IMG/VR virus record: IMGVR_UViG_3300042524_000214
Span: 102,663-131,453 of that record
DNA length: 28,791 nucleotides
Reading direction: 5' to 3' (one strand)
Origin: a virus
Taxonomy: Duplodnaviria; Heunggongvirae; Uroviricota; Caudoviricetes
Shown: positions 11,984 through 25,952 of the stretch, piece after piece
How positions within the stretch are numbered: the first letter of the stretch is position 1
How the letters are laid out: every line of letters starts with the position of its first letter
Notes under the pieces: model-generated
Told to the model about the DNA's origin: nothing
Database searches by the model: none
What the model saw: the letters and a program-made list of their open reading frames with translations, nothing else
Program-made: the position numbers and the translations under genes

Positions 11984-14788
11984 TTATCTTATTTTTGTTT
12001 GTAGTACTTGTTTTCTTCTTTCCATTATTTCATTTTCTAAGTAACTATTTATTAAAGACATAGTGTTAGTATTAAATGTATGGGTATTGTAATCAATAGC
12101 TACTGGAGGCATGTTTTTAATCATTTTACCGTTCTTCATAAGAGTTGGATAAAACGCTCCTGATTTTCTTTCCCAGTTAACTGAGTAGTTTGCCTCTAAT
12201 ACATTTGTAGAATAGTCTTGTAAGTATTCTTTTGGTAAGTACTTTGATGCTACGTCTAACAATTCGTCTTTTGTTTTAAACTCAGAAAAATTTGTTCTTT
12301 GTATTAATTCAGTTATCCCTTGAGGTAAAGAATTAGAGTAGTTGCCCAAATACTTATTAGAAAACTCATATCTTGAGTCTAAGTCTACAAAAGGTTTATA
12401 GTGTAACAACACTTTCATTTCTTGCGGATTGCTCTTAGAATAAGCCCATTCTGTTTTATTGGTCTGCATGCTGCTCATTAAGTTAGAAGGTAAGTTAGAA
12501 ACAGGTATTTGTACCGTGTCTCTTACTATTTCTTTTGTTTGTCCTCCTTTTTCTTTTGGTATTAGTAGTTCGTTGTCAAAAGAAACTGTGGCTATACCGT
12601 TCTCTACTTTTTGTATTAATATGTTTGTGCCTTTTTCTGGGCTTTTCCCTTGTGCATATAAAGCAGATTTAACTGCATCAATATACGGTACATCCCCTTT
12701 ATTACCTGAACTTAAAACTACAGACATTGTTTTATCTAAATTAGCTTCTTGTTGTTTTAGTATAAGGTCGAATTTTGAAGCTACTGATGTTTTTGTGTTT
12801 AATATTCTATCAGTTACTCCTTCTCCATTTTTTAGATTAATATCGTTTCCTTCAATCTCATTCAAATTAGTATCTGAACTAAACGTTCTACCTATTACTT
12901 TAGCTTGATTTAAAATTCCTTTGAAGCCTTTTGCAAAACCTTCTCTTGAATCTTGTGCGTATTTTGAGGCATCTGTATTAAATATTTTTGCTTTGGCACC
13001 CATAGTCATAGCAGACCATGTTCCTTGAGCAATACCTGACATAGTTTCCCAACCAGATTCCCAAAACCCTGGATTTTCTGTTTTGTATTTTTCTAGCTCT
13101 TTATCAGAAATTTTATTTTCTTGTTTTACTCCTTGTAGATAAAAGTCCATTCTTTTTTTATCGTCTTCATCATCAAGAACGTAATCCTTTATATTTTTGG
13201 CAATCTCATAAGAAGCCATTGCTTTTTCTTTTGGTGTTAACTGTGAAGCATTTTTGTATTTTTTAAGAAGTTCTGCTGTATATGGCATGCTGGTTGAAAG
13301 ACCACTTACATTTAAGTCTTTTGTTTTACCTCCAAATAAACCATTTAAAGTCTCATTAACATCTTTGCTATAATACTCGGTAGCGGCTTTCTTTAAGTTA
13401 TAAGAAATTTTATTATGGTATTCTACTTTTTTATAACTTTCTAATACCTCTGGACTAAATCCTTGGGCATTAATGTCTGTACCCTCTTTAGAAGTTTTCT
13501 TTAAGTTAATGTAATAGTTGGTTACATCCTTGTCTGTAGCACTCTTACCTTCTTTTTGTAACTGTTGTTTTACTACTTGTTTGAATTCGTTGTATGAAGT
13601 GTTTCTTCCTTTTTCATATAGTGCTAAAGGAGATTCTTTTTCTTTTTCATTAACTTTTTCTTCTACGCTTGTAAATGCAGTACCTGCTGGCAATCCTTGT
13701 GCTGCACCTGTACCTAAACCAGCACCTTTACCTGTTCCGGTTCCTTTTCCTGATTTGTAAAAATCATCGTTTTCTATGTCTGTTATTTCAGAATACCCAA
13801 AAGTTTTCTTGTAAGACTCAATTAAATTGTGTGTCTCATTTTTGTATAAAAAGCTATCTCTATTAAAATTTTTAGGGTCTAATTGAGATTCAAAAAATTC
13901 TTTTTGTTGACTTGTATAAGACTTCTTCTGATTAAGTGTTTCTAACTTAGCTTTATCATCTGGATTAGTATTTTTAATATCCGTGTCTATAGAAGACAAC
14001 GTTACATCGTACTTATTTAACAAAGGTTTAGCTTGGTCTTGGTACTCTTTTAATAAAGACTCATCTGGAACACCTCTATATTTATAGTGGGCATTAATCA
14101 TTAGCTGGTCTTTAAGTTTTGTATCAGATTGAATTCTATTATTTACAAAACTGTCTATCTCTTCCGGTTTTATCCTTTTTCCTTTTACTGTTTGGTAAAT
14201 GTAACCACCCTGTACACTAGTGTCTACAACTCTTTCAAAACCTCTTTCTTTAGCCCATTTATCTAATGGCTCGTTAAGGTTTTTTGTTACATCGTAGTAT
14301 TCTTTGTATTGTAAGTTACCTAAATCATCTGTTTCCCCTTTCATATAAGCAGCATAGCCCGACTTATCTAACGCATACGCATAATTGGCATCGTTATATA
14401 ATTCAGGCTTTTGTTTTTTAACTCTTGCAGCTTCTTGTTGAAAGCTTTGTATTTTTTGGGAATTTCCTATTTGTGTTTTTACATTCTCATCAATAGCAGT
14501 ACTAATATAGTTGTTTACTTGTCTAGCAACATTATTATTAGTCATATCTACTTTAGAGTTAGCATCTACCATTGATAATAGCCCATGGAGTCTATCCCCA
14601 AGATACTTTTTATCCTGTTCTCTAGCTAAAGGAACACTTGTTATTTTTTGTATTAAGTCGTCTACTTTAGCTACGTTGACATCAAATCTTTGTTGTAAAG
14701 CTGTTTGAACTTGACCCGTTAATTGCACCACATCCATAGTGGATATAGCGTGCCCGTAGTTTATAGGTGTAGAATATGCGTTTGCCAT
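11984..14788 (-). CDS. Putative virion cargo/ejection protein (934 aa)
   Basis: Long ORF with a helical N-terminus (QQRFDVNVAKVDDL...QDKKYL...VDMTNNNV) resembling crAss-like cargo proteins (recollection, not searched), a Gly/Thr/Lys linker (KSGKGTGTGKGAGLGTG) and its own upstream promoter. No catalytic motif recognised. Confidence 0.65.
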   Translation of the reverse strand: MANAYSTPINYGHAISTMDVVQLTGQVQTALQQRFDVNVAKVDDLIQKITSVPLAREQDKKYLGDRLHGLLSMVDANSKVDMTNNNVARQVNNYISTAIDENVKTQIGNSQKIQSFQQEAARVKKQKPELYNDANYAYALDKSGYAAYMKGETDDLGNLQYKEYYDVTKNLNEPLDKWAKERGFERVVDTSVQGGYIYQTVKGKRIKPEEIDSFVNNRIQSDTKLKDQLMINAHYKYRGVPDESLLKEYQDQAKPLLNKYDVTLSSIDTDIKNTNPDDKAKLETLNQKKSYTSQQKEFFESQLDPKNFNRDSFLYKNETHNLIESYKKTFGYSEITDIENDDFYKSGKGTGTGKGAGLGTGAAQGLPAGTAFTSVEEKVNEKEKESPLALYEKGRNTSYNEFKQVVKQQLQKEGKSATDKDVTNYYINLKKTSKEGTDINAQGFSPEVLESYKKVEYHNKISYNLKKAATEYYSKDVNETLNGLFGGKTKDLNVSGLSTSMPYTAELLKKYKNASQLTPKEKAMASYEIAKNIKDYVLDDEDDKKRMDFYLQGVKQENKISDKELEKYKTENPGFWESGWETMSGIAQGTWSAMTMGAKAKIFNTDASKYAQDSREGFAKGFKGILNQAKVIGRTFSSDTNLNEIEGNDINLKNGEGVTDRILNTKTSVASKFDLILKQQEANLDKTMSVVLSSGNKGDVPYIDAVKSALYAQGKSPEKGTNILIQKVENGIATVSFDNELLIPKEKGGQTKEIVRDTVQIPVSNLPSNLMSSMQTNKTEWAYSKSNPQEMKVLLHYKPFVDLDSRYEFSNKYLGNYSNSLPQGITELIQRTNFSEFKTKDELLDVASKYLPKEYLQDYSTNVLEANYSVNWERKSGAFYPTLMKNGKMIKNMPPVAIDYNTHTFNTNTMSLINSYLENEIMERRKQVLQTKIR

Positions 14789-14846: not shown

Positions 14847-17066
14847 TTATTTTTTAAATCTACCTCCAAATTTTTTCTTTTCGGTCTTTTTTGTTTTAGC
14901 AGCCTCTTGTTCTTTTGAATAAAGTTCTTTTAAAAAGTTTGTTTCACCTTCATTAAAATTTGGTGTCTTATTTACTTCATAACCTTCTCCAGTAAACTGT
15001 ACATCTGGATTTAGTGCATTGTATCTATTAAACCCTTCTACTGTCTTCCAGTTATTCATCTGGTTTTCTTGAAGTCTATTATAAAAGTTATTTAAGTTTT
15101 GCTCATAAGCATTTTGTGCTGTATAAGTTCTTTTTTCGTAGTCTAAAGCATCTTGACCTGCTGCATTTTCTTCAGCATCGGATATTTTTGCATTGTATGT
15201 ATCAACTGCATTTCTACCTGCTGCATTAGACCTATTTACATCTGCAATTACTTTATTAGAATTCATATTGTAATTAGCTGTTACCCCTATAGAAGCTGCT
15301 GCTCTTTGTGCTGGGGTCATATCTTTTAGCTGGTCTTGTGTAGCATTTTCGGAACGATTCATCTCAGCTAATTGTTGTTCTGGAGATATATCATTGTACC
15401 CTATTCTACTGTATCTTCTTTGTAGTTTTAAACTAGGTTGTATAGAAGATGGCATTAATGGAGTTTGGTCAGGTAGTAACAACAAACCTCTTCTGTTTTT
15501 GTCTTTTACTATATCTTTTGTAGGTTCTTCTACAACATTGTTTTGTTTAAATTTAAAAGGGTTTTCCGCAAATCTAACAGTCCCTGTTGATGGTGTTTCC
15601 GGTGTTTCCCCTGGAGTAACCGGCTTATTCTCACCAGTAAGTTTTAAAAACTTATTTGTAGGGTTTTTTGCTGACTCATCTAAATCTTGTACTGTAACCC
15701 CATATTCATCTGCTATCATTTGCTTACCCCCTGGGGATTGCTTTCTATAAGCATCTAAATCTACATTACCTGATTTTTTAGCAGGTTTTGCTACTACAAA
15801 CCCAGGCTCTGAAGCTACTATGTTACCATAAGCATCTGTCTTTTGGTTTCTAAACGGTGCACCTTGGTACACTATCCCTTTTTCTTTTAAGGCAGGTATT
15901 ACTTCATTGTATATTAATTTAGTGTCCTCTGGGTTATTTGGATTAAAATCTCTACCTGTTTTTTGTTTGAATGTGGTATTATACAAATACCCATTTATTC
16001 TTGCTTCGTCTTGTCCTCCGTAAGAGCCATTAGGATTATCTTTGTGTTGTAACTGTATAGGCAGCACTTTTCCTGTACCTATTGTTTCTAACATACCTGG
16101 ATTAAATACTAACTCATTACTGTCAATTGCTTTGTTTAAATTGTCTAAACTCTTCTTATCTAATACAAATTTAGAATAGTGTTTTTTAATTGCTTCTTTT
16201 TCTTTATCCGTGTAAGTTCTAGCTTTACCTGTTACTTCCCCTAAAACACCTTTTTTAGCCTCTTTCTGGTAGTATTCTGCATCGGACATATTTTCGGGTC
16301 TCTCTGAACCTTTGTTAAGCCCTAACTGTTTTACTAAATCAGCAAATGGGTTTACAAATCCTGCATCTTGGTAATGTGGTAGGGTTTTTAAAAGTTCTTT
16401 AGCTCTTTCTGGGTCTATCTTATGTTTGGCGGCTAGTTCCAAGTAGTCTCCTCCCATTTGCATTTTATACCCAGATTGTTCTGTTTTAGCCTCCTCTTGT
16501 TTTTTAAATAGCATATCAAAAAATTTAGCTCTCTCTTTTTCAAGAGGTTCTTTTTCTTTACTTTTGCTGTTTACACTGTTGTTTAGGAATTGATTGTTTA
16601 AAGCAAAAGTTTCTTTATCTTTGCTCTTATCTTTCTGCTCATCCATAGATTTAATAAACTTTTCTAACTCTTCATTTACTTTAGTTAACCCCGAAGCATT
16701 AGTAAACCTATCTAAAGCTTTAGAGTAAGTGTCATTAGCTTTAAAAGGTAATTTTAATGATTTGTTTAATTCTTTAGCTAAGTCAACCCCAATTTTTAAA
16801 TGGTTACTTATAATTCTAGAGCCCTCTTCAAGTTTAACTGGCATACCTCCCTTTTCGTGGGATTTACCTTCAAACTTTCTTATGCCTTTAGAGTCAAGTA
16901 TGTATTCTCCACCTTCTACCTCTGCGTTAGGTTTTGCTATGGGTTTATCCATATCCAGTGCAAACTGGTACTCACCAGTCATAGCTTTATGCAAATCCTT
17001 TTTCTCGCCACCGTTTGCAAAGAAGATATTTTCAAAAACTTCTTTTGGTATTTCTATTTTATTCAT
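14847..17066 (-). CDS. Putative virion cargo/structural protein (739 aa) with an N-terminal EVEGGE...SHEKGG domain
   Basis: ORF overlaps the upstream stop by 8 nt. NAEVEGGEYI...FEGKSHEKGGMPV...IISNHLK is a motif I recognise from Bacteroidota phage virion proteins. The C-terminal third is Q/N/A-rich and helical, and the protein ends KKKFGGRFKK. Confidence 0.65.
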   Translation of the reverse strand: MNKIEIPKEVFENIFFANGGEKKDLHKAMTGEYQFALDMDKPIAKPNAEVEGGEYILDSKGIRKFEGKSHEKGGMPVKLEEGSRIISNHLKIGVDLAKELNKSLKLPFKANDTYSKALDRFTNASGLTKVNEELEKFIKSMDEQKDKSKDKETFALNNQFLNNSVNSKSKEKEPLEKERAKFFDMLFKKQEEAKTEQSGYKMQMGGDYLELAAKHKIDPERAKELLKTLPHYQDAGFVNPFADLVKQLGLNKGSERPENMSDAEYYQKEAKKGVLGEVTGKARTYTDKEKEAIKKHYSKFVLDKKSLDNLNKAIDSNELVFNPGMLETIGTGKVLPIQLQHKDNPNGSYGGQDEARINGYLYNTTFKQKTGRDFNPNNPEDTKLIYNEVIPALKEKGIVYQGAPFRNQKTDAYGNIVASEPGFVVAKPAKKSGNVDLDAYRKQSPGGKQMIADEYGVTVQDLDESAKNPTNKFLKLTGENKPVTPGETPETPSTGTVRFAENPFKFKQNNVVEEPTKDIVKDKNRRGLLLLPDQTPLMPSSIQPSLKLQRRYSRIGYNDISPEQQLAEMNRSENATQDQLKDMTPAQRAAASIGVTANYNMNSNKVIADVNRSNAAGRNAVDTYNAKISDAEENAAGQDALDYEKRTYTAQNAYEQNLNNFYNRLQENQMNNWKTVEGFNRYNALNPDVQFTGEGYEVNKTPNFNEGETNFLKELYSKEQEAAKTKKTEKKKFGGRFKK

Positions 17067-19194
17067 AGCTTACTTCGTATTTTCCGGTTGTACTATTAAA
17101 AGTATAATCTTTTATTGTTTTTCCTTTCAAAGAATTTAAGTATTCTCCTCCTTTTCTCATCTGTGGAGTACCTTGCTCTGGGGATTCCATTCCTGTTTCT
17201 CCCCCTTGTATTTCTTGTAGTATTTCTTGTATCATTTGCATAGCTTGCTCTTGAGGTATACCCATTTGAACTAATTGTTCTAATACTTGTTTAGGGTCTG
17301 CCCCTTGTTTAAGAGCTTGTTCAACTTGTGATTCAATTTGCTCCATACTTGGTGTTTCTCCTTCGGTTCCTTCATTTTCCCCCTCTGCTTTCTCATCCAT
17401 TGCTTCCCCACCTTCTTGGTAATATTTACCCCCTCTTTTCATTTGTGGGCTAGCTTGTGGTGCTTGTTGACCTCCTTGCATTTGTTGCATAGCTGCTTGC
17501 ACTATTTGTTGAGCTTGTTCTTGTGGAACACCTGCTTCAATGAGTTGTTGTAGTATTTGTTGAGGGTCGGCACCTTGCTGTAGCATTTGTGAAACTTGCT
17601 GCATGATAGCTTGCATTTGTTCGTTTTGTTGTGGTTCAGCTGCTTGTTCCTCACCACCTTCTTGATACATATAACCGCCTCTTTTCATTTGTGGGGTACC
17701 TTGTTCCATCTGCTCTTCTTGTGGGTTTGGCTGTCCACCTTCGGCACCTTCTTCCTGAGAACTTTGTCCTTGTTGTTGTATTTGCTGCATAACAGCTTGT
17801 ACAAGTTGAACTGCTTGTTCTTGTGGCATACCTGATTTTAACAACATCTGCATAACTTGTTGCGGTTGAGCTCCTTGTTGTAATGCTTGAGAGACTTGTT
17901 CTGCCATTTGTTGCTCTCCACCGTCTTGGTAGTACATCGTACCACCTCTTTTCATTTGTGGAGTGGCACCTTGAGATTGCTGCATCACTGTTTGTACCAT
18001 TTGAACTGCTTGTTCTTGTGGTATCCCCATTTGGACTAATTGTTGGATTACTTGTTGTGGGTCAGCTCCTTGTTGTAACATTTGTGCTACTTCTTGCATT
18101 ATTTGCTGTTCTTGACCTCCTCCTTGTTGTTCCATACCTTCTTCTTGTGAATTTGATGTTTGTCCTTCTAATCCTTCTTCCATTCCTGGTTGCATTCCTC
18201 CTTCTTGGTAATAGCCTCCAAATCTTGCCATTTGCTCTCTTCCTTGACCAGTCATACCTTCTCTTTGTTTTTCTGCGTATTGTTTTTTAACGTAATTTTC
18301 TCTTCTAGCTTGCCCCATACCTCCTAGTATATTTCTAGCTGTTCCTAAAGCAACTTTAGCTCCAGATGCAACTGCACCTAGGGTGTCTTTGTTTTCTAGA
18401 GATTGACCAAACATAACACTAGCAGATGGTATATCTACTCCTGAGTAAGGGTTGAAAAATTGAAATGGTTGTCCTTCTTTAATATCTGGTTTTTGTAATC
18501 CGGTTGTTTCTGTTTTTGCTTTTGCATCTTCTACTTCTGCACCAAACACATTGCTAGACATAGGTTTTTCTATACCTTGTGGTAAAGGATTTTTTGCAGC
18601 CCAATCTTTTCCTGCTGTTAGAGATTCTGGAGATAATGGACTTGGTTTATTTGGGTCTACTCCTAATCCATTTTCATTTGGATTTATTGCTGTTATTTTA
18701 TTTAAACTGGCTGAAAATTCTTCCGGAGAAGCTATGTTTGTGTTTTCGCCAAATTTAGGCTTAGGGAACGTACTACCTGGGAAATTCCCTGCAAACTGGT
18801 AGCTAGGTAGTTGATAACCACCCTCTCCATGAATATTATCATACATTTCGTATGCTACAGCAACTGCTTGTTTTTGGGGATAGCCCTCACGTACAAGTTT
18901 TGAAATTTTAGCACTTATCCAGTCATTCTTTTCACCACCGTGACCAAACATAGGGGTTTCCGCCACATAAGAAGCTCCACCAAATCTATACTCTTCTCCC
19001 GGTTGCATAACCACGCTATTACCAATTGGATTACCATTTTGGTCTAGAGGGGTTGCTTGCAATGGGTAAGGGGTATTAGCCATAGTTATATTCTCACTTG
19101 GTATAAAATTAACAGGGTTTTTCTCTGAGCTATACCCTGGAGTATAACCTGTTCTATTTACTAGGTTAGACTTTTTTTTGTACTTTCTTTCCAT
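17059..19194 (-). CDS. Putative virion/head-associated protein (711 aa) with four Gln/Met-rich helical repeats separated by MKRGG...YQ[DE]GG motifs
   Basis: N-terminal compact domain (IPSENITM...PYPL...MQPGEEYRF...ETPMFGHGG), a short ISKLVREGYPQKQAVAVA module, and four ~45-aa repeats. Function not assigned. Confidence 0.7.
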   Translation of the reverse strand: MERKYKKKSNLVNRTGYTPGYSSEKNPVNFIPSENITMANTPYPLQATPLDQNGNPIGNSVVMQPGEEYRFGGASYVAETPMFGHGGEKNDWISAKISKLVREGYPQKQAVAVAYEMYDNIHGEGGYQLPSYQFAGNFPGSTFPKPKFGENTNIASPEEFSASLNKITAINPNENGLGVDPNKPSPLSPESLTAGKDWAAKNPLPQGIEKPMSSNVFGAEVEDAKAKTETTGLQKPDIKEGQPFQFFNPYSGVDIPSASVMFGQSLENKDTLGAVASGAKVALGTARNILGGMGQARRENYVKKQYAEKQREGMTGQGREQMARFGGYYQEGGMQPGMEEGLEGQTSNSQEEGMEQQGGGQEQQIMQEVAQMLQQGADPQQVIQQLVQMGIPQEQAVQMVQTVMQQSQGATPQMKRGGTMYYQDGGEQQMAEQVSQALQQGAQPQQVMQMLLKSGMPQEQAVQLVQAVMQQIQQQGQSSQEEGAEGGQPNPQEEQMEQGTPQMKRGGYMYQEGGEEQAAEPQQNEQMQAIMQQVSQMLQQGADPQQILQQLIEAGVPQEQAQQIVQAAMQQMQGGQQAPQASPQMKRGGKYYQEGGEAMDEKAEGENEGTEGETPSMEQIESQVEQALKQGADPKQVLEQLVQMGIPQEQAMQMIQEILQEIQGGETGMESPEQGTPQMRKGGEYLNSLKGKTIKDYTFNSTTGKYEVSYE
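17146..18231 (-). repeat. Four degenerate intragenic repeats (Q/M-rich helical unit plus PQM[KR][RK]GG)
   Basis: The core [VI]xQxLxQGAxPxQ[VI]xxxLxxxG[IMV]PQEQAxQ occurs 4 times. At DNA level ttcatttgtgg recurs at ~17437, ~17684 and ~17951, with a variant at ~17156. Confidence 0.9.
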
Positions 19195-19206
19195 TTTATT
19201 TTTTTA

Positions 19207-19230
19207 TTTGAAATATTTTTATTAATTTTG
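19207..19230 (+). promoter_or_regulatory. Possible Bacteroidota promoter for the VanZ-like gene
   Basis: TAATTTTG (19223-19230) followed by CAC, 22 nt upstream of the ATG at 19253. The nearest TTTG (19207-19210) is only 12 nt upstream, shorter than the usual ~19-21 nt spacer. Confidence 0.45.
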
Positions 19231-19252
19231 CACTTTAATTAAACGATTTATT

Positions 19253-19618
19253 ATGAAAACTTTATTACTAGGAATTTTTAGTTTTATTTTTTACAACGGG
19301 TTTTTTACATTCTCAAAAAGTAATACTATTATTTTATCTATATTTACAGATAAGCAATTACATTTTGCTGTATTCTTTTTATACCCTTTGGTTTTTTTAT
19401 ATTTTCTTCCTAAAAATAAGATTATTACTATAATAACTCTTTTATTTTTTGGTACTATGACTTTTGGTATAGAAGTATTACAAAGAAAATATTTCCATAG
19501 AACTTATTCTATGCTAGATTTTAAATACTCCTTTTGTGGGTTTTTGTCCTCTTGCCTTGTATTACTAATCCTAAATACTATATCTTATTTTGGCTCTTTA
19601 AAGAAGTTCTCCATTTAG
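19253..19618 (+). CDS. VanZ-like family membrane protein (121 aa)
   Basis: Several hydrophobic segments plus the VanZ-type signature DKxxHF ... GIEVLQ...R..S.LD...G (FTDKQLHFAVFF; FGIEVLQRKYFHRTYSMLDFKYSFCG). It fills a gap with no minus-strand gene and has a -7 box upstream. Confidence 0.78.
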   Translation: MKTLLLGIFSFIFYNGFFTFSKSNTIILSIFTDKQLHFAVFFLYPLVFLYFLPKNKIITIITLLFFGTMTFGIEVLQRKYFHRTYSMLDFKYSFCGFLSSCLVLLILNTISYFGSLKKFSI

Positions 19619-22343
19619 CAACATTCTTTTGTAATAGTAAACTATCAGAAGTTGTTTTGTAAGATTTTTTATTATCCCCTACATCAAACATATTTGAGTA
19701 ATTCAAAACTTTATTAGTATAATCTACATCATAGTCTTTAGCCCAGTCTTCTATTTTCTTACCATTTACCACACGACCCATCGTACTATTATAAGTTGTT
19801 ATAGCTCTATACATAGCATCTTTTTTACTAAATCCTTTATCTAGAAATTTTTTATAGTCTTTAGATAATTTATACATAGTAGTCAATGATGCTTTATTTT
19901 CATCAGAAAAATTATCTTTTGTGATACCTAATTCTGTTACATCATCATTTCCAAAGTTAGATTCATATTTTAATTGTCCTGCTCCTTGGGATGCTTCGTC
20001 TTTTTTAAGCCCTACAGCATGTGCAGATTTAGCTACTGTTTGTTTTATACCGGTAGTGTATTTAGCACTTGTACCAAAACCTGTCTCTTGACCTAGTATG
20101 CCCAAGGATGCCTTAGCTAATGAGTTGTACTCATCGTCACCAAGGTTAAATACTTTTGAAAGTACTTTTTTATTCTTGTTATCATTCAAAGGTTTTATAA
20201 AAGAGTTCTCTAATTTACTTTTTGCAGAAGCTGATGTAAAAAAGTTATCATAATCCCCAGTGGATAAAGTGGCTGCTTTTTTAGGGTTTAGTTTTATAGC
20301 TAAGTCTTCTCTAACTATTTTCTTTTCCCCATTCTCTACAGAACCATAATTTGGTCTAAATATATGCTTTACTGTGTATGGGCTACTATGCCCTTGTATT
20401 TCACTTGCTTTAACTAAATCTCTATACTCTCTACCTTCAAAACCATCTTCTTTATTCCCTTTGTGCAGATTATGTAGTATGTAGTAACTTCCATCTGGGT
20501 TTACTTTATCTACTATACCTACGTGGGTTGTTCCGGTTCCTGCTGCATCGGCTTCTTTTTGGAAAGGGCTAATACCATGTGTGTAAACTGTGATTACATC
20601 TCCAGCTTGTACTTGTTTAGGTTTTACCTCTTGCCCACCTTTGCTTATTATATTTTTACCTATACTCCAAGCATCCCCTGTTATACCAGTCTTGGCATTC
20701 CATTCATCTCTCGATACATTAGGTTGCACGTTTCTAAATAGCTCATTTTGGCTATATTCTGAACACTGTGACTCTGTGCACTTGCCTAATAAACCTTTAC
20801 CCTCTTTTATGCTAGAGTATCCATTATTAGATAAGTTTTGGTTATACTGTTGTATTGCTTTTAATGTTACTTTACCTGCTTTACCATCTATACCTGAATT
20901 CTCAAACTTACCTTCTGGATTTAGATTATATCCTTTTTCTACTAAGAAAGACTGTAGTTTTTTTACTTGGTCTTGGCTTTTAAAATCAGATAGTTTTAAA
21001 TCTATATCTTTATTTTCTATAGAATCCTCTAAAGTAGCTTTGCTTGAAAGTTCCTTATTTATTTCAGATAAATTCAATCTATCTTTTTTATCTTCTATTT
21101 CTTTTAATATCTCTTTTTTAGTACCGTATTTTAATTCCTGTTTTTTTTCTAGTACTTGCTCTTGTATATTTCCAGTACCTTCCCTAACTCCGGTAAATTG
21201 TCTTCTGGGTAAATCCTTGAATACTACCTTTTCGCCTGGTTTAGAGCCATATTTAGATATTAACTCGTCTACTTTGCTAGTTGGTTCTGCTTTTTTTGTA
21301 GTTGGTTTTGCAGTCGGTTTCTGAGTTGTTCTTTGAGGTGTTCCAAAACCCTGAGATAACTGTTCTTGAAAAGTTTTAGGAGCCGCCCCGAAAGGGTTTT
21401 CTTCATCCTCTGCATAAGTTTCTGCAAAATCTCCACCTTCAGCAAATCTTTTTAGTTCTTTGTTGAACACCTCGTAATCAATACCCCCTTGTGTACCCCC
21501 TTGTGTACCACCATTTTCAAAATAGCTTGGTGCTTGTTGAGCTTGATATTCTGGAAGTTCTGGCATATATAATTCATAGCCTGATTGATTAGCTTGAGGA
21601 GCTTGTTGCTCTTCTTGTCTTGCTTGTAGTTCTTGGATAAAGTTTTGCTCTTGTTGAGATTTTTTTAGTTCTTCTTTTGCGGAGTCTCCTTCAATATCTT
21701 CTTGGCTTTTATCCGTTTCATAATAATCTTGTGCTGTTACGTAATCCCCAGAATTCTCTGTTAAGTTAAGAGTTGAATCTAAATAGTAGTCTTTTGGTTC
21801 AGACTTATCTGCATAATAGCTATCTCTAGACTCTGTGCTAGAAGGGTAATTATTGTTTTCCGGATTAGACTTATTTGAGCTAATTCCTATTTTTCCTAAA
21901 ATACTTTTTATTTTTACATCGTACTTATCATCTGTGGCATAACCTTCTCCGCTACCGGTTCTTGGGTTATACTTCCAAATTTTTCCTAATGCTTCGTCTA
22001 CGGTGCTTGCATTTTTGTATTTGCTACCCCATTTTTTTATTCTATCATCTACTGCTTCTTCTAGGGTATCATAATCTCTAAATTTGGCATTAGTTCTGTA
22101 AGACCTATTATTTGATACCTCTAATGTAGACTTATTGCTACCTTTTTGGGAGGCTGATGCTTTTTGCCCAAAATAGTTGTACTTACCGGCAGGGCTCTTA
22201 AACCAACCAGTTTCTAAAATTGCTTGGGCTAAGGTTAGCTCTGGGTGTCTATCTCCTCTATTTTTTGCTGTATCGTAGAGTTGTGTAGCTTTGCTCCACT
22301 GCTCATTACTTACATCTTTTGGTTTTATTAAAACATCTGCCAT
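19578..22343 (-). CDS. Multi-domain peptidoglycan hydrolase (921 aa): GH73 glucosaminidase + PG-binding-1 + NlpC/P60/CHAP-like amidase + lytic transglycosylase/lysozyme-like
   Basis: GH73: AQAILETGW (E at 22212-22214), NYFGQK, FRDY, YATDDKY. PG-binding: VKKLQSFLVEKGY...GIDGKAGKVTLKAIQQY (~20840-20985). Papain-like: QCSEY (C 20763-20765), GDAW, AGDVI, THVGIV (H 20523-20525), ILHN. SLT-like: ILGQETGFG (E 20085-20087), SQGAGQLK, TYNS, YTNKV. Confidence 0.88.
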   Translation of the reverse strand: MADVLIKPKDVSNEQWSKATQLYDTAKNRGDRHPELTLAQAILETGWFKSPAGKYNYFGQKASASQKGSNKSTLEVSNNRSYRTNAKFRDYDTLEEAVDDRIKKWGSKYKNASTVDEALGKIWKYNPRTGSGEGYATDDKYDVKIKSILGKIGISSNKSNPENNNYPSSTESRDSYYADKSEPKDYYLDSTLNLTENSGDYVTAQDYYETDKSQEDIEGDSAKEELKKSQQEQNFIQELQARQEEQQAPQANQSGYELYMPELPEYQAQQAPSYFENGGTQGGTQGGIDYEVFNKELKRFAEGGDFAETYAEDEENPFGAAPKTFQEQLSQGFGTPQRTTQKPTAKPTTKKAEPTSKVDELISKYGSKPGEKVVFKDLPRRQFTGVREGTGNIQEQVLEKKQELKYGTKKEILKEIEDKKDRLNLSEINKELSSKATLEDSIENKDIDLKLSDFKSQDQVKKLQSFLVEKGYNLNPEGKFENSGIDGKAGKVTLKAIQQYNQNLSNNGYSSIKEGKGLLGKCTESQCSEYSQNELFRNVQPNVSRDEWNAKTGITGDAWSIGKNIISKGGQEVKPKQVQAGDVITVYTHGISPFQKEADAAGTGTTHVGIVDKVNPDGSYYILHNLHKGNKEDGFEGREYRDLVKASEIQGHSSPYTVKHIFRPNYGSVENGEKKIVREDLAIKLNPKKAATLSTGDYDNFFTSASAKSKLENSFIKPLNDNKNKKVLSKVFNLGDDEYNSLAKASLGILGQETGFGTSAKYTTGIKQTVAKSAHAVGLKKDEASQGAGQLKYESNFGNDDVTELGITKDNFSDENKASLTTMYKLSKDYKKFLDKGFSKKDAMYRAITTYNSTMGRVVNGKKIEDWAKDYDVDYTNKVLNYSNMFDVGDNKKSYKTTSDSLLLQKNVAKWRTSLKSQNKI
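21483..21506. repeat. Exact 12-nt tandem duplication (acccccttgtgt x2) encoding GG-TQ-GG-TQ-GG
   Basis: Read directly from the sequence; in frame within the lysin gene, immediately after FENGG. Confidence 0.85.
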
Positions 22344-22423: not shown

Positions 22424-23359
22424 TTATGTGTTTTGGGATTCGTTTAGCACAAATTTAAGTGCTAAGCTAAATCTACTATCTTTATCATAAGAAAGCCTAT
22501 TTAAGAACCAATCTCCTTCCATTTTTCTAAGTGGGTTAATACCTTGGAATTTAATTACCGCTGGGTTAGGTTGTTTATCTATCTGATTCTTGTCTTGGAG
22601 TAAAGCTGGTATGTTTGTTGTATTGTACTTTACTCTGTTAAAAATATAATCATAAGAAAACTGAAAATTATCTTTATTAGTAATCAAAATATTTTGTGTA
22701 TTATTCGGATTTGTTTTTGGATAATTTTTTACAGTGGCTAGGTTAGGCTCTTGTATATCTAATAGTAGTTGCCCTGAACAACCTACGTTATTGTAAATCA
22801 AAGACTTGTTAAACGTTAGTGAAGGTGTTACAGCAAAATCATAATCATTGCTATATCTTTTTGCTTCTGTCCATAATTTTACACCTTTTAACCTTTTTGT
22901 CATATACTCAGATTTTATAGGGTACTCAACAGTGAAAATCTGTTTTTTACCATAAAATACTTGGTAGGACTTGTTTGTTAGTAAGTGTGACCATAAACCT
23001 AATTCTTGGCTATCTAAAGCATTATTTCTTCCTGTTTGGAAGTAACTGTTATGATTAATATAATAGTTAGGGTAGAAGCCATAAAAGCTTAACCAAGAGC
23101 CTGTGTTTAATGAAAAAGCTATCGTCCAAGATACCTCTTCAAAATATCTAACATCTGTTAAACTAGCAGGGGTTAATATGTCAACTACTGTTGGTGGTAT
23201 AGAATCTTCACAACTACAGTAAGCATTACCATTTTCTAATCTAATTAGCGTACAGCCTTCTGGGCAAAGCACGTTTGTAATAGTACCAGAACAGGAGCAG
23301 TATACTACTCCTAATTCTGTGTACTGTGTACAATTTGTTTGTGGGCAAGTGCAATTCAT
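22424..23359 (-). CDS. C-terminal part of a crAss-type tail-stabilisation-like protein (311 aa) with a Cys-rich N-terminus
   Basis: Start revised from 23404 to the ATG at 23359 (MNCTCPQ...), 10 A-rich nt after the upstream stop, which removes a 35-nt overlap. Motifs FEEVSWTIAFS, WLSFYGFYPNYYINHNSYFQTG, GLWSH, FYGK, TFNKSLIYNN, GDWFLNRL resemble the C-terminal half of crAss-like tail proteins (recollection). Confidence 0.68.
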   Translation of the reverse strand: MNCTCPQTNCTQYTELGVVYCSCSGTITNVLCPEGCTLIRLENGNAYCSCEDSIPPTVVDILTPASLTDVRYFEEVSWTIAFSLNTGSWLSFYGFYPNYYINHNSYFQTGRNNALDSQELGLWSHLLTNKSYQVFYGKKQIFTVEYPIKSEYMTKRLKGVKLWTEAKRYSNDYDFAVTPSLTFNKSLIYNNVGCSGQLLLDIQEPNLATVKNYPKTNPNNTQNILITNKDNFQFSYDYIFNRVKYNTTNIPALLQDKNQIDKQPNPAVIKFQGINPLRKMEGDWFLNRLSYDKDSRFSLALKFVLNESQNT

Positions 23360-23369
23360 ATTTTTATTT

Positions 23370-25580
23370 TTATAATACTGTAATATCAAATGTTGGTGGT
23401 ACAAGCCATAGTTGTGAATAGGTTGGTTCAGGTATTGCTAAATCTAATTCAAAAGTAGATACGCCAGTTGTAATAGGTGTCCCTAAGGCTTGCATAGTTA
23501 TTGTTTGAGAACCTAGTGTTGTAAAAGTACCTTTCGCTCTAAATGTTACTCCATTAGCATATCCTATAAAATCGTATGTTCCTAAGAATGTAACATTTAC
23601 TGTAATATTTTGTGTTACTGTGCTTGGTGTTATTGCAACACCTGCTGTTAAAGTTCCTGTTTGTGTGCCTATTGAAATACTATCTATTTTACTATTACCC
23701 CCAGTTGAACTTTCGTAAGTGGTTAAAACTTGCCCAGGTACAAAAGTACAAGGGTTTATTTCTAATACTTTAGAACCTATAACTCCATCATAAACGCTAA
23801 CTCCATTTATAAAGAACTGTAACCCTACTACATCACTGTGCTGGTTATAGTATTTTCCAATAAGGGTGACTCCTACAGTTGGTGTGGGGTTTGTTACTAC
23901 GTTTGTGCCTCTTAGTCTTATTTTTAGTGTGTTTGCGGTAGCTGATAAGCCCTCTTCTATAATACCTGATTTAATTACTGAATACTCTACAAAACTCTCT
24001 CTAGAACTTGTATCACCTGCTAATGGGGAAGTAGTAAATCTCCCGTATACTATTTTATTAAATTCGTCTGGTGTACTTGAATTATTTAAGCTGACATAAG
24101 TTGCAGGGGTTTCCACATTTGATGGGGATGGTAAAATGCTTGCTGATGGTAAATAATGGAAGCAATCTATTGGTACACCATTTGTCATAAAATTATATCT
24201 AGCCCTATTACAATTATGCCCAAACGTAGAACTAATAGGAGACCAAAAAGCTGTGTAATTTGCTTCTGTACTTGTTCCAGTAACATACGTTGTCCCATTC
24301 CAAGTATAAAAAAGGTTTGTATCAGATGCAACATAAACCTGACCTAATAATCCAGGAGTAGGGAATAATGCGTAGTTAAGATAATTATTTCCGCCTAATC
24401 TTTGAATCCCTGGAGTGGGTGAAAATACGCTACAGGATAAATTTACTGTAGTGTTTGAAAAAGTAACTACTGGTGCTGTTGCACTATACTTTAAAATACT
24501 TATATTATTTGCAGAGCCACCGAGTGTAATACCTAAAGCAAGTAATGTTGTATTGTGGGTATTTCTAAAATCAGTAGCTGTTTGTGTAGTACTTGAGTTA
24601 AATGATATAGCATAGGGTGTACCATCTATAATAATGTTACCTGAACCACTTGTACCAGATACACTAATACTTATACTTGTATATGGTAGAGTAAACTCTC
24701 TCAAATTGTCATAAAATACCCTAGCTGTAAGCACTGCTAAACATTCTTCTATTGTAGCTCCTATATTTATTGTGTAAACTAAAGTGTTTGTACATCCATT
24801 TGGGGCTGTTGCTACTATGGTGTAAACTACTGCGGCAGCATTAGGGCATGTTAGTGTGTCTGTTATTACACTGCCTGTTCCAGATGTTGCTCCAGTAACA
24901 CCTGCATCTGCTACAACAGTCCATGCAAAAGTTGTTCCTGGAACTCCACTACTAAGAGCTACGTTCAATGAATCACCGCTTGTAATTGTTTGTGGGCTAT
25001 TTGGCACTGCTATTATATTTGGTTTTGGGTTAACTGTAACTGTAACTTGTATAGGTGTTCCTGAACATCCTGACAAACCTTGTTCATAAGGTGTTATTGT
25101 GTATATTGCAGTCCCTGGTGTTGCACCTGTCGCAACTAAAGCTTGAGATATAGTATTACCTGATGCAATAGAGTTACCTGAAGTACCTCCATTAACACCC
25201 GTTTGTAAAACTACCCATGAATACACGACCCCACTAGGTAGTGTGGATGTAAGGGGTACAGATGTATTATCACCACTACAAATCGTTTGTGGGGATGCTA
25301 TTACATCAGCTAAACAGAGACAATCTGCTGGTATATCATTACTTGCTTCGCAATAAGAATCCTCTGGATTTTGTGCGACATACACGTATAAATAACCATC
25401 TGGACATAAATTTCCTGTGTTATACGCTAGAATACATTCTGTTTCATCTTCACTTAAAGTGTAGCCTGGTGGACAAGACTTTGGTTTACAAGATGGGGGT
25501 ACTGTAGTTGTTGTTTCACAGTATTTTACTCCTTGTATATCTACCAGTATGGCATTTTCGTTTTCACAATAGCAACTCAT
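23370..25580 (-). CDS. Adhesin/tail-fibre-like protein (736 aa): Cys-rich N-terminus, two PKD-like Ig-fold repeats, Thr/Gly-rich C-terminal beta domain
   Basis: CPPGYTL and CPDGYLY modules. Repeats QTICSGD...YSW...YTITPY...GCSG...VTVTVNPKP and QTITSGD...FAW...YTIVATAPNGC are typical of Bacteroidota PKD-like domains. C-terminal GTLTAG...VNVT..GTY....NGVTF...GTFTTLG.QT......GTP...G..TF resembles Flavobacteriia surface-protein repeats. Confidence 0.72.
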   Translation of the reverse strand: MSCYCENENAILVDIQGVKYCETTTTVPPSCKPKSCPPGYTLSEDETECILAYNTGNLCPDGYLYVYVAQNPEDSYCEASNDIPADCLCLADVIASPQTICSGDNTSVPLTSTLPSGVVYSWVVLQTGVNGGTSGNSIASGNTISQALVATGATPGTAIYTITPYEQGLSGCSGTPIQVTVTVNPKPNIIAVPNSPQTITSGDSLNVALSSGVPGTTFAWTVVADAGVTGATSGTGSVITDTLTCPNAAAVVYTIVATAPNGCTNTLVYTINIGATIEECLAVLTARVFYDNLREFTLPYTSISISVSGTSGSGNIIIDGTPYAISFNSSTTQTATDFRNTHNTTLLALGITLGGSANNISILKYSATAPVVTFSNTTVNLSCSVFSPTPGIQRLGGNNYLNYALFPTPGLLGQVYVASDTNLFYTWNGTTYVTGTSTEANYTAFWSPISSTFGHNCNRARYNFMTNGVPIDCFHYLPSASILPSPSNVETPATYVSLNNSSTPDEFNKIVYGRFTTSPLAGDTSSRESFVEYSVIKSGIIEEGLSATANTLKIRLRGTNVVTNPTPTVGVTLIGKYYNQHSDVVGLQFFINGVSVYDGVIGSKVLEINPCTFVPGQVLTTYESSTGGNSKIDSISIGTQTGTLTAGVAITPSTVTQNITVNVTFLGTYDFIGYANGVTFRAKGTFTTLGSQTITMQALGTPITTGVSTFELDLAIPEPTYSQLWLVPPTFDITVL

Positions 25581-25590
25581 ATTTTTGGTT

Positions 25591-25947
25591 TTATTTTATT
25601 AATACAGCTTCTTTTCCGAAACCATCTACCCTCAGCATAAATTTAAAATCTACTTTTACCGGGAATTTTATTTTATTGATTTCTAAAACTTGTTTTTGTG
25701 TTATATTTTTTTGTATGATAATATCATAATCACTTGAATCTATCCAATACCCTTTTACTCTTGACCCAAATAAATACATCTGACACTCTCCTATAGTAGT
25801 TTCTAGTAAGTCCTTTATAATGTGTAATACTTTTTTACAATCCTCTGGTAATTCTTTCCACTCTGTTATTAAAGGATGAACTGCCAGTCTTTTTACTGGC
25901 AGCTTAAATCCTAATGGGTTCCCTATGTATGGGTATTGTTTTCTCAT
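25591..25947 (-). CDS. Minimal nucleotidyltransferase (Pol-beta superfamily), 118 aa
   Basis: YLFGSRVKG....SDYDI = hG[GS]x9-13Dh[DE]h signature, with a probable third acid in VKVDF. The start is more likely 25947 (MRKQYPY, 5 nt after the upstream TAA) than the 25983 of the track. Confidence 0.8.
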   Translation of the reverse strand: MRKQYPYIGNPLGFKLPVKRLAVHPLITEWKELPEDCKKVLHIIKDLLETTIGECQMYLFGSRVKGYWIDSSDYDIIIQKNITQKQVLEINKIKFPVKVDFKFMLRVDGFGKEAVLIK

Positions 25948-25952
25948 ATTAT

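Follow-up and report, generated by a model that had tools for sequence, protein, structure and literature searches.

Introduction

The protein that crass-type phages store and inject amounts to megadaltons. Among better described systems, the internal proteins of phage T4 carry a single N-terminal capsid-targeting peptide, which is removed by the S77 prohead protease gp21, and the disordered translocation domains of colicins contain linear binding epitopes (e.g., the TolB box and the OmpF-binding sites). Glycine pairs mark the sites of the adenovirus protease, (M/I/L)-x-G-G↓x, and of the ASFV protease pS273R, GG↓x, as well as the LRLRGG tail of ubiquitin and ISG15.

Closest to the locus described here stand Cellulophaga phage phi4:1 (NC_021788) and crAss001. 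The phi4:1 proteins gp040 and gp041 are true orthologues of the proteins discussed below and are virion proteins by MS/MS, annotated no further than "structural". [quoted passage not shown] Here we describe a conserved short linear motif that stands at nearly all module borders, near the N-terminus and at the C-terminus of such proteins; it is restricted to the genes that come first behind the muzzle gene, and it is under purifying selection at the protein level. A full-text literature search found no published description of it: the motif is not discussed in the crAss001 structural paper (PMC10172136), and FQEGG, YQEGG, YQDGG, FQDGG, FQxGG and YQxGG returned nothing concerning phages.

A cargo block of the crass type

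The window, i.e., the whole stretch of 28,791 nucleotides that was analysed, forms the block of cargo and ejection genes in a marine phage of 131 kb; the phage is of the Cellulophaga phi4:1 (Lightbulbvirus) type and has a crAss-like muzzle protein. Its gene order (muzzle pieces, lysin, 711- and 739-aa ORFs, 934-aa ORF, giant proteins) is the same in csAssE-Sib and crAss001, and its muzzle protein is 36% identical to the annotated csAssE-Sib muzzle, which ties the block to crass-type virions. The genes concerned are the following.

19578..22343, minus strand: virion lysin P0001, 921 aa (Pfam, PHROG, orthologue phi4:1 gp041)
17059..19194, minus strand: 711-aa ORF P0002, N-terminal half of a C1-like cargo protein whose gene is split (phi4:1 gp040 alignment, phrog_36695)
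14847..17066, minus strand: 739-aa ORF P0003, C-terminal half of the split cargo protein (phi4:1 gp040 alignment, phrog_36695)
11984..14788, minus strand: 934-aa cargo protein P0004, no motif; negative control within the same gene block

Both the lysin and the split cargo protein are built as strings of small modules that fold independently, with disordered linkers between them. The lysin consists of a GH73 glucosaminidase domain (aa 22-151; 59.7 bits against Pfam Glucosaminidase, cut-off 30.2), a conserved linker that holds both of its motifs, a CHAP-like domain (aa 526-624; 23.2 bits against Pfam CHAP, under the 26-bit cut-off) and a putative C-terminal domain that by eye looks transglycosylase-like. 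PHROG annotates the protein as endolysin, and MS/MS confirmed its orthologue, phi4:1 gp041, as a virion "tail protein". The GH73 match and the MS/MS-detected orthologue qualify it as a virion-associated peptidoglycan hydrolase, presumably itself present in the virion. The peptidase-type domain varies among relatives, being CHAP-like here, whereas phi4:1 gp041 has two HExxH motifs in place of the CHAP-like and C-terminal domains.

By alignment, the 711- and 739-aa ORFs are two halves of one gene, which sits in the slot of crAss001 C1, after the muzzle gene and before the large cargo genes associated with RNA polymerase. In phi4:1 the gene is uninterrupted: gp040, a single 895-aa virion protein, corresponds to the N-terminal part of the 711-aa ORF plus the 739-aa ORF and has no three-helix repeats. 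P0002 aa 1-315 align with gp040 aa 1-318 and P0003 aa 45-696 with aa ~355-880; likewise, the two match phrog_36695 at positions 229-354 and 355-548, respectively. The start of P0003 overlaps the stop of P0002 in ATGAATAA. A complex prediction that paired the first 200 aa of P0003 with the split-specific C-terminal tail of P0002 (aa 664-711) gave no verdict (score 0.15, mark 0.34).

In P0002, which has 431 relatives at E<=1e-3, a beta domain (aa 29-81) is followed by a helical hairpin (89-122), a conserved core rich in Gly and Ala (255-314) and four three-helix modules rich in Q and M. In P0003 (AlphaFold2 model, mean pLDDT 75), an N-terminal helix pair precedes a beta domain (aa 45-90) with the signature G-x-S-H-E-x-GG; then come a coiled coil (93-194), a small helix-turn-helix (208-226), a C-terminal helical domain and a basic tail. 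For aa 1-262 of P0003, Foldseek against the PDB returned nothing at E<=0.001 and a wide VIA-align search only generic coiled-coil matches (Z<=5.9).

The motif and its distribution

The features in the three neighbouring ORFs, all on the minus strand, are listed from the lysin to the end of the 739-aa ORF.

21507..21521, minus strand: FENGG, lysin aa 275-279, acidic type, immediately behind the N-terminal glycosidase with its Q-rich linker
21432..21446, minus strand: FAEGG, lysin aa 300-304, second lysin motif, of the form R-F-[EA]-E-G-G-D-F
18934..18948, minus strand: FGHGG, P0002 aa 83-87, border of beta domain and helical hairpin; family consensus TP-x-F-x-x-GG-[EK]
18817..18831, minus strand: HGEGG, P0002 aa 122-126, end of the helical hairpin
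18787..18801, minus strand: variant YQFAG of the 711-aa ORF, after HGEGG
18196..18231, minus strand: MARFGG-YYQEGG doublet, P0002 aa 322-333, opening the repeat region; pLDDT <50
17146..18117, minus strand: four three-helix "QGADP" modules of P0002 (aa 360-408, 426-476, 523-573 and 617-663; AlphaFold2 model)
17917-17961, 17653-17694 and 17407-17448, minus strand: PQMKRGG-x-Y(Y)Q[ED]GG doublets between the modules, in disordered linkers
17146-17166, minus strand: PQMRKGG, end of the module region (coordinates checked by script)
17007..17021, minus strand: FANGG, P0003 aa 16-20, between two short helices; pLDDT ~80
16845..16859, minus strand: HEKGG, P0003 aa 70-74, a regular-expression match inside the folded beta domain, not a linker motif
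16449-16463, minus strand: MQMGG, which together with YQDAG brackets the small helix-turn-helix of P0003; pLDDT <50
16359-16373, minus strand: variant YQDAG of the 739-aa ORF, the other bracket of the helix-turn-helix; pLDDT <50
14850..14873, minus strand: C-terminal KFGGRFKK, followed by the stop codon; end of the 739-aa ORF

Translation of the minus-strand ORFs with scripted coordinates located every motif of an earlier note on this DNA where that note had placed it, and yielded two more, YRFGG in the 711-aa ORF and HEKGG in the 739-aa ORF. In all, [FYMH]xxGG occurs 16 times in the 2,371 aa of the three ORFs (6.75 per 1000 aa) and 13 times in the 37,272 aa of the remaining phage proteome (0.35 per 1000 aa). 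The enrichment in these genes, suspected in the earlier note, is therefore ~19-fold, with a Poisson P of 1e-15, or of 2e-8 once the four-fold repeat is counted as a single unit, half of the copies (8/16) belonging to one ~85-aa unit present as four diverged copies. In composition-preserving shuffles P was <2e-4 for the 711-aa ORF and 0.007 for the 739-aa ORF; the lysin by itself reached only 0.11. Two of the 16 copies, HEKGG and YRFGG, lie within predicted beta domains and are not of the linker type (H70, G73 and G74 of HEKGG are invariant and sit in strands at pLDDT 75-90); the others are in linkers that AlphaFold2 predicts to be disordered, but FANGG reaches a pLDDT of ~80. The three-helix modules of P0002 are modelled at pLDDT 83-94 and their linkers at <50.

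The 16 GG pairs are written with eight different codon pairs, GGTGGT being the most frequent, and this synonymous variation indicates that the motif is selected at the protein level. The codon usage also rules out an RNA-level origin, such as a Shine-Dalgarno-like GGAGG or a recombination linker. Recent tandem duplication of the DNA is ruled out as well, as Tandem Repeats Finder reported no long-period repeat.

Seven post-muzzle proteins together contain 6 Cys in ~9,300 aa, compared with 1.11% Cys proteome-wide, and this near-absence of Cys fits unfolded ejection. Four of these Cys-depleted cargo proteins (934, 1929, 2162 and 1908 aa) are motif-free. There are no matches in the 934-aa protein, in agreement with the earlier note, which had not seen the motif in a border role there, and in the 25,830 aa of its orthologues the strict motif has a density of 0.08 per 1000 aa; in orthologues of the giant proteins the strict motif is absent over 42,277 aa. 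The motif-free cargo proteins with their orthologues thus range from 0.00 to 0.08 strict motifs per 1000 aa, versus 1.9-6.4 for the motif carriers. Since these four proteins and their orthologues lack the motif, the general capsid-targeting cargo tag that had been suggested earlier is not supported; as a tag, the motif could serve at most one sub-class of cargo.

Conservation among relatives

In the family, the motif takes the extended form P-x-Φ-[QK]-x-G-G, where Φ is aromatic or Met. An alignment of 938 instances has Φ at P5 and Q/K/E at P4, and Φ is also at P5 in all 16 window copies. Two forms can be told apart: a basic one, PQ[ML][KR][KR]GG, closes a module, and an acidic one, YYQ[ED]GG-E, opens the next linker; among family representatives, doublets run basic-then-acidic in 33 cases and in reverse order in 2. 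The motif is conserved in hundreds of related phage proteins and averages 8.6 per 1000 aa over 147 cluster representatives of the family. In 27 related viral contigs its strict form occurs only in lysin, P0002-like and P0003-like ORFs and in co-located unclassified ORFs.

Motif positions are kept in orthologues that are only ~27-40% identical (phi4:1 gp040/gp041 and csAssE-Sib), where Φ, Q/K, GG and the upstream Pro are retained at the same sites while adjacent linker residues and lengths diverge. Together with the repeats being old at the DNA level and the GG codons differing, this retention points to purifying selection on the exact residues. The earlier description of the motif as a feature of module borders in low-complexity linkers, which lack of conservation in orthologues would have undermined, is in this respect borne out and can be extended: the motif is under purifying selection and limited to some virion proteins.

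Individual sites bear this out. In ~50 lysin homologues the first motif reads (APS)YF[QEK]xGG at aa ~260-290, and in most 880-940-aa orthologues RFEEGGDF follows ~21 aa further on; gp041 of phi4:1 has FLKEGG. The equivalent sites of the cargo protein read, in phi4:1 gp040, NFQAGG, SYQNGG...MLKSGG (the counterpart of MARFGG-YYQEGG), FQIGG...FQSGG (that of MQMGG...YQDAG, which is FRDGG...MAEGG in csAssE-Sib) and a C-terminal WGGKKR. At the HGEGG/YQFAG site relatives have H-x-x-GG-YQLP-x-YQ-x-[AG]G. Glycines G19 and G20 of FANGG are invariant across 21 aligned homologues, as are G205 and G206 of MQMGG. Within the P0003 family, a motif lies in the first 30 aa of 110/115 proteins, and 99/115 end in GG plus 2-6 mostly basic residues, by far most often as (A)KFGGRFKK. 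The tail lysozyme of csAssE-Sib, a gut epsilon-crAss phage, lacks the motif, which is therefore not obligatory for a virion lysin.

The three-helix modules number 0 to 5 per family member and are exchanged between relatives. Pfam UBA_7 scored 25.6 bits against the Q/M-rich module (cut-off 27 bits), with no single stretch over the cut-off, and a module profile searched against the PDB found the HUWE1 UBA at E 0.05, ranked under designed helical repeats; the ESM Atlas gave no match. The UBA likeness of the module is sub-threshold only. LysM homology of the MQMGG...YQDAG unit is not supported: P0003 aa 197-228 match the LytE LysM repeats (8i2e_B) weakly at the profile level (E 0.17), AlphaFold2 models the unit as two helices with disordered flanks, and Pfam LysM has no match in the genome at E<=10.

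Comparison with crAss001 C1

The gene of crAss001 gp45 (PDB 7QOG chain M; 842 aa) directly follows the muzzle gene, and the protein is close in size to the fused phi4:1 gp040 (895 aa). Shared traits run from a basic N-terminus through a hydrophobic helix rich in Gly and Ala, with a basic stretch behind it, and a domain containing S-H-E to a helical C-terminal region rich in Q, N and A and a C-terminus that is basic and contains GG. gp45 lacks the Q/M-rich three-helix repeats of P0002 and carries far fewer motifs, namely FDTGG at 17, FAEGG at 260 and FAYGG at 559. These motifs and the basic C-terminus flank the segments docked in the cryo-EM structure, just outside the resolved parts. Pairwise comparison of P0002/P0003 with gp45 gave E 0.34 by BLASTP and E 0.51 by hhalign (probability 0.1%); in a search of the family HMM against 163 sequences, gp45 had two collinear domains (i-E 0.005 and 0.57) at a full-sequence E of 0.12. 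7QOG was not among the Foldseek or VIA-align results for the N-terminal model.

Possible functions of the motif

Our tentative preference, to which we give somewhat less than an even chance, is that the motif is a docking or sorting element of first-ejected cargo, bound non-covalently in trans by a putative partner. It would hold the two elongated proteins in register in the portal/tail-barrel conduit, or to each other; it would set "first-out", envelope-acting cargo apart from the capsid-stored giant proteins; and its Gly-Gly might supply the hinge that lets the chain thread and, on ejection, come out rapidly module by module and refold. The enrichment, the conserved positions, the flanking consensus, the doublet order and the selection at the protein level argue for docking. 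So does the step from well-modelled modules to motifs at pLDDT <50, as is usual for motifs that take on order only with a partner, and so do the restriction of the motif to lysin-, P0002- and P0003-like ORFs (plus the co-located unclassified ones) and its absence from the giants, the near Cys-free post-muzzle proteins, the crass-type gene order and the gp45 motifs flanking docked segments. Several points speak against it: the crAss001 maps place the motifs just outside the resolved segments, not visibly docked, the homology of P0002/P0003 to gp45 appears marginal at the sequence level, the csAssE-Sib tail lysozyme does without the motif, and low pLDDT is likewise expected of a cleavage site or a plain flexible linker. 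The T4 capsid-targeting signal is similar in being a short N-proximal signal on packaged, later injected proteins, but the motif described here is also internal, repeated and C-terminal, and is absent from four of the seven cargo proteins.

The earlier note had proposed a protease-directed polyprotein maturation system. As a processing code, the motif would direct a protease of phage or host origin to cut at or after GG, either inside the virion or following ejection, so that short N- and C-terminal peptides are trimmed off and the small modules freed. Its place in exposed, disordered linkers at module borders would suit this, its occurrence in the first 30 aa and 2-6 aa from the C-terminus resembles pro-peptide trimming, and the same virion includes a peptidase-type domain, the CHAP-like domain of the lysin. 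Moreover, the cargo gene is naturally split at such a border, so that covalent continuity there is dispensable. The motif is also like the adenovirus, ASFV and ubiquitin sites in having a hydrophobic residue and often basic ones ahead of GG, in proteins that are virion precursors, and PQ[ML][KR][KR]GG superficially resembles LRLRGG. However, those adenain- and ubiquitin-type sites have their hydrophobic residue at P4, one residue out of register with the Φ at P5 found here, and the genome offers no candidate peptidase. Six-frame HMM searches of the 131-kb genome, which very remote homologues could escape, had no match at E<=1 to S78, S77, ClpP, S49, C5, C48 or C39, leaving neither a prohead protease (HK97 S78, T4 S77 or ClpP/S49 type) nor an adenain/Ulp-type clan-CE protease (Peptidase_C5, Peptidase_C48), so the prohead or Cys protease envisaged elsewhere in the genome was not found at that threshold. 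PHROG and Pfam searches of the head genes likewise gave no protease, the ORFs between portal and major capsid protein matching no PHROGs other than those labelled unknown function or "virion structural protein". For double-glycine leader export, which the N-proximal GG motif of the P0003 family brings to mind, Peptidase_C39 was absent at E<=1 and there was no transporter. In addition, the motif is missing from the polyvalent giant proteins, where the need for processing would be greatest, the peptidase-type domain of the lysin differs across relatives, and "cleav" and "proteolytic" occur 0 times in the crass-type virion structural paper (PMC10172136). Taken together, we consider processing rather unlikely; were it real, no earlier case of proteolytic maturation would be known for this type of virion. 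The related idea that the repeats act as ubiquitin decoys fares worse, as it presupposes cleavage after GG and the UBA likeness of the helical repeat is sub-threshold. In this scheme a phage or host protease that escaped recognition would free up to four acidic, Q/M-rich three-helix peptides of ~80 aa, each with a ubiquitin-like tail ending in PQM[KR][KR]GG, to act in the infected cell, e.g., as decoys or inhibitors of bacterial defences based on ubiquitin-like conjugation; it would also release the lysin and the C-terminal half of the cargo protein, each as an effector of its own. We regard the scheme as highly improbable.

An element acting within the chain is a further explanation, and one we also find fairly improbable: an acidic motif before and a basic one after a module, or the two members of an adjacent doublet, would pair as a beta clasp, hairpin or hinge and speed refolding. 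The complementary charges, the strong bias of the doublets towards basic-then-acidic order, the acidic...basic bracketing of modules, the modelling of FANGG as a helix-helix break at pLDDT ~80 and the faint LysM-like (beta-alpha-alpha-beta) pattern of MQMGG...YQDAG around a two-helix unit are in line with such pairing. Yet AlphaFold2, which models the modules at pLDDT ~90, leaves their flanking motifs at <50 with neither strand nor pairing, Pfam LysM finds nothing in the genome, and some motifs stand singly, others at chain ends, and those of the lysin bracket no module. Recognition might instead lie in the host, with the motif binding a periplasmic or cell-wall component after ejection and anchoring the lysin and a channel-forming cargo protein in a colicin-like manner. 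The motif is multivalent, lies in disordered regions and is found only in the lysin, which acts on the cell wall, and in the C1-like protein, whose crAss001 counterpart is the proposed envelope channel; like colicins, these proteins combine short conserved motifs with long disordered Gly-rich regions, would pass a narrow pore unfolded and act in the envelope, an analogy of principle only, with no sequence relationship. Against the motif-free tail lysozyme of the gut epsilon-crAss phage and the negative LysM test, we give a host receptor a slim chance. We think it very unlikely that the motif is a linker idiom with no specific reader, spread with its flanks by duplication and shuffling of modules and kept as a flexible, soluble joint: half of the copies do stem from one four-fold repeat, and module number varies with exchange among relatives, but Φ, Q/K, GG and the upstream Pro persist while the linkers around them diverge, and the repeats are old at the DNA level, with differing GG codons.

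Range of the motif and composition of related proteins

For the sorting of crass-type cargo between tail lumen and capsid, its competence for unfolding and its ordered release, the motif provides a concrete, mutable handle. It ranges from phages of marine Flavobacteriia to a human-gut epsilon crAss-like phage, possibly including crAss001 gp45, and can be tested in cultured systems, i.e., the Cellulophaga phages phi4:1 and phi17:2 and crAss001. In multi-module relatives, Pfam added only YkuD, DUF5754 and weak repeat-driven matches, and within the window the LPD23 domain of the 2162-aa polyvalent protein was confirmed.

Genomic Context of the Motif-Bearing Genes

The window closes a 131,453-bp phage record on its right-hand side, and all its large ORFs are carried on the minus strand. 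Along the direction of transcription, two ORFs of 920 and 326 aa (the latter 311 aa when counted from its first ATG) are followed by the 921-aa lysin, by ORFs of 711, 739 and 934 aa, and by three giants of 1929, 2162 and 1908 aa. The 920- and 326-aa ORFs and a 1164-aa ORF at the opposite end of the record match successive parts of phrog_37948, which corresponds to the 2289-aa gp042 of phage phi4:1, and the 920-aa piece shares 36% identity with the annotated muzzle protein of the epsilon crAss-like phage csAssE-Sib. Among cultured phages, the nearest relatives are the Cellulophaga phages phi4:1 and phi17:2 (Lightbulbvirus), in which the counterparts of the block genes are all annotated as virion proteins from MS/MS. 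The seven post-muzzle ORFs contain 6 Cys in ~9,300 aa (vs. 1.11% proteome-wide) and the 739-aa family 2 Cys in 79,504 aa, a scarcity that fits unfolded ejection through tail and periplasm.

Features of the block
Window 1-22343 plus genome 96481-102207, minus strand: near-Cys-free set of seven ORFs (lysin, 711, 739, 934, 1929, 2162 and 1908 aa)
Window 1-6126, continuing in the full genome: 2162-aa giant virion ORF with an LPD23 domain (41.8 bits), which marks large polyvalent proteins
Window 22424-28715 plus genome 2-3493: muzzle gene in three ORFs (1164, 920 and 326 aa), a single 2289-aa gene in phi4:1
Window 23370-25580: 736-aa Cys-rich ORF with a PKD domain, between the second and third muzzle pieces
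Window 25591-25983: 130-aa nucleotidyltransferase-like ORF, between the same two pieces

Enrichment and Distribution of the Motif

A scripted check of the translated ORFs recovered, each in its place, all the motifs that the earlier note had listed in the lysin, 711-aa and 739-aa ORFs under the pattern [FYMH]xxGG (Φ denoting its hydrophobic residue). A simple whole-genome ORF set of 39,643 aa holds 29 matches to this pattern, of which 16 fall in the three ORFs (6.75 per 1000 aa vs. 0.35 elsewhere; Poisson P = 1e-15). Four old, diverged repeats of a single ~85-aa unit account for eight of the 16, and P is 2e-8 with this repeat collapsed. In composition-preserving shuffles, P was <2e-4 with the 711-aa ORF, 0.007 with the 739-aa ORF and 0.11 with the lysin, which falls short of significance when taken apart from its orthologues. 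Two of the 16, HEKGG and YRFGG, are located within beta domains of the predicted structures.

A strict form, [FYM][QKE]xGG, was counted across 27 related viral contigs. The few motif-bearing ORFs of other kinds in these contigs adjoin a 739-aa homologue, nearly all directly upstream, in the lysin/cargo slot.

Strict motifs per 1000 aa in 27 related viral contigs
711-like ORFs: 6.4
Fused forms: 3.8
Lysins: 2.7
739-like ORFs: 1.9
934-aa orthologues: 0.08
Muzzle proteins: 0.05
1929-aa orthologues (42,277 aa): 0.00

The motif is confined to the first three ORFs of the post-muzzle cargo set, which rules out the general cargo or capsid tag that had been suggested. The top non-family match of the cargo-family HMM (E 0.017), probably by chance, is a 122-aa ORF of the early region (genome 87787-88155), which lies beyond the window and ends in ...VQYQDGGRTLKVFCK.

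Conservation Across Relatives

A single gene is divided here into the 711- and 739-aa ORFs, its two halves. The 895-aa gp040 of phi4:1 aligns with aa 1-315 of the former and aa 45-696 of the latter, and the two ORFs match consecutive parts of phrog_36695. Equivalents of the motif sites are present in gp040 (NFQAGG, SYQNGG/MLKSGG, FQIGG, FQSGG and a terminal WGGKKR), and gp041, the lysin orthologue, carries FLKEGG past its N-terminal muramidase.

G19/G20 and G205/G206 do not vary in an alignment of 21 homologues of the 739-aa ORF. Of 115 members of this family, 110 carry a motif within the N-terminal 30 aa, and in 99 the chain closes with GG and another 2-6 residues, in most cases as KFGGRFKK. 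In the lysins, YF[QEK]xGG is kept near aa 270 by ~50 homologues, RFEEGGDF follows ~21 aa beyond the first motif in most orthologues of 880-940 aa, and motif number is higher where there are more modules. Starting from aa 1-345 of the 711-aa ORF, an exhaustive search that used no profile retrieved 431 relatives, the best 147 cluster representatives of which hold 960 motifs in 111,456 aa (8.6 per 1000 aa), with the extended consensus P-x-Φ-[QK]-x-G-G and E as the most frequent next residue. A basic form, TPQ[ML][KR][KR]GG, and an acidic form, (GG)YYQ[ED]GG, are frequently neighbours, basic preceding acidic in 33 cases and following it in 2. The codons for GG vary freely, and therefore the constraint acts on the protein.

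Modules and Predicted Structure

AlphaFold2 models of the 711-aa ORF contain the following modules.

Predicted modules of the 711-aa ORF (AlphaFold2)
aa 29-81: beta domain
aa 89-122: helical hairpin
aa 255-314: helical core
Four three-helix modules, pLDDT 83-94
Terminal helix and hairpin

The linker motifs lie within or border segments of pLDDT <50. The model of aa 1-262 of the 739-aa ORF (mean pLDDT 75) opens with a helix pair broken by FANGG and continues through a small beta domain and a long coiled coil to a two-helix unit, which is flanked by disordered MQMGG and YQDAG. Such conserved islands in linkers predicted to be disordered are expected of linear motifs read in trans by a binding site or an enzyme. 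Searches of solved folds with the model of the 739-aa ORF and with a module profile returned no convincing match. At aa 202-226 of the 739-aa ORF (window 16389-16463), the sequence Y-K-M-Q-M-G-G-D-...-A-x-K-[YH]-x-I-x-x-E-x-A-x-E-L-L faintly resembles a LysM pattern, that of LytE (8i2e_B, E 0.17), but the Pfam LysM model does not match the unit.

Modules are also inserted between motifs. Five metagenomic homologues of the 711-aa ORF (P0119, P0123, P0124, P0133 and P0145) have an extra small module between the basic and acidic motifs, with the recurrent sequence ...KRADGSYS-RRGLWDNIRDN-x-GSGK-x-PT..., and in lysin relatives the inserts are DUF5754, YkuD L,D-transpeptidase and Zn-ribbon-like modules. 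In phi4:1 gp041 (L001 11717-13936), an N-terminal lysozyme-like domain is followed by two HExxH motifs (HEFTH and HELNH). This pair stands where the window's lysin has its CHAP-like and C-terminal domains, so that the conserved GG-motif linker can be followed by different, exchangeable enzymatic payloads.

The 711-aa ORF stops, and the 739-aa ORF starts, within the overlap ATGAATAA at window 17059-17066. Two special additions set split forms apart from fused forms, which have neither: at the C-terminus a tail, GG-x-Y-x3-L-x-GK-x-I..., forming a helix and beta hairpin (in 28 of 148 family representatives), and at the N-terminus a head, ...IPKEVFENIFFA[NE]GG. Tail and head may act as an adapter for reuniting the two halves.

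Comparison With the Cargo Protein C1 of crAss001

In Bacteroides phage crAss001, the muzzle gene is followed by that of the cargo protein C1 (gp45), twelve copies of which are bound by a helix (aa 214-245) within the tail barrel and by a domain (aa 425-552) to the portal wing. The proposal for gp45 is that it threads through the portal, exits first, moving N-to-C, and contributes to a trans-envelope channel (PMC10172136). Its layout is that of the fused gp040-type protein. Both have a basic N-terminus and finish in a basic end that contains GG, and in between they have a hydrophobic, Gly/Ala-rich helix with a basic stretch after it, a domain containing S-H-E and a C-terminal region rich in Q/N/A. 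Moreover, gp45 has motifs at 17 (FDTGG), 260 (FAEGG) and 559 (FAYGG), just outside the resolved docked segments. As its similarity to the 711- and 739-aa sequences is collinear but not significant, the pair is treated as a positional and architectural counterpart of C1, to which it is probably homologous. Epsilon crAss phages are said to have no gp45 homologue (PMC10172136); in them, a homologue of the 739-aa ORF occupies the gp45 slot.

Possible Functions of the Motif

The analysis confirms the original observation and extends it: the linear motif is found family-wide, selected at the protein level and placed at module borders in the first-ejected cargo of a crass-type podophage. A literature search found no paper describing it. 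Protease-directed maturation, as proposed in the earlier note, would be compatible with the terminal positions of some motifs and with the place where the gene is naturally split, at a border marked by a motif. However, six-frame searches of the whole genome with the Pfam models S78, S77, ClpP, S49, adenain C5, Ulp C48 and C39 gave nothing at E<=1, and head-module ORFs match only portal, terminase, structural or unknown PHROGs, none of them a protease. The CHAP-like domain of the lysin scores below threshold and is the one exchanged in phi4:1, the 2162-aa polyvalent protein and the other giants lack the motif, and Φ would stand at P5, whereas adenovirus- and ubiquitin-type sites have it at P4. 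Processing is therefore unsupported, and a cleavage site is an unlikely identity for the motif.

An intramolecular clasp appears about as doubtful as cleavage. A role in binding the host envelope is less probable still, and a neutral linker idiom, in which the motif would simply be a habitual way of joining modules, is the least probable of these readings. We tentatively favour a non-covalent docking or sorting element that doubles as a hinge, by which these proteins might be stored in the portal/tail conduit and released from it in order.
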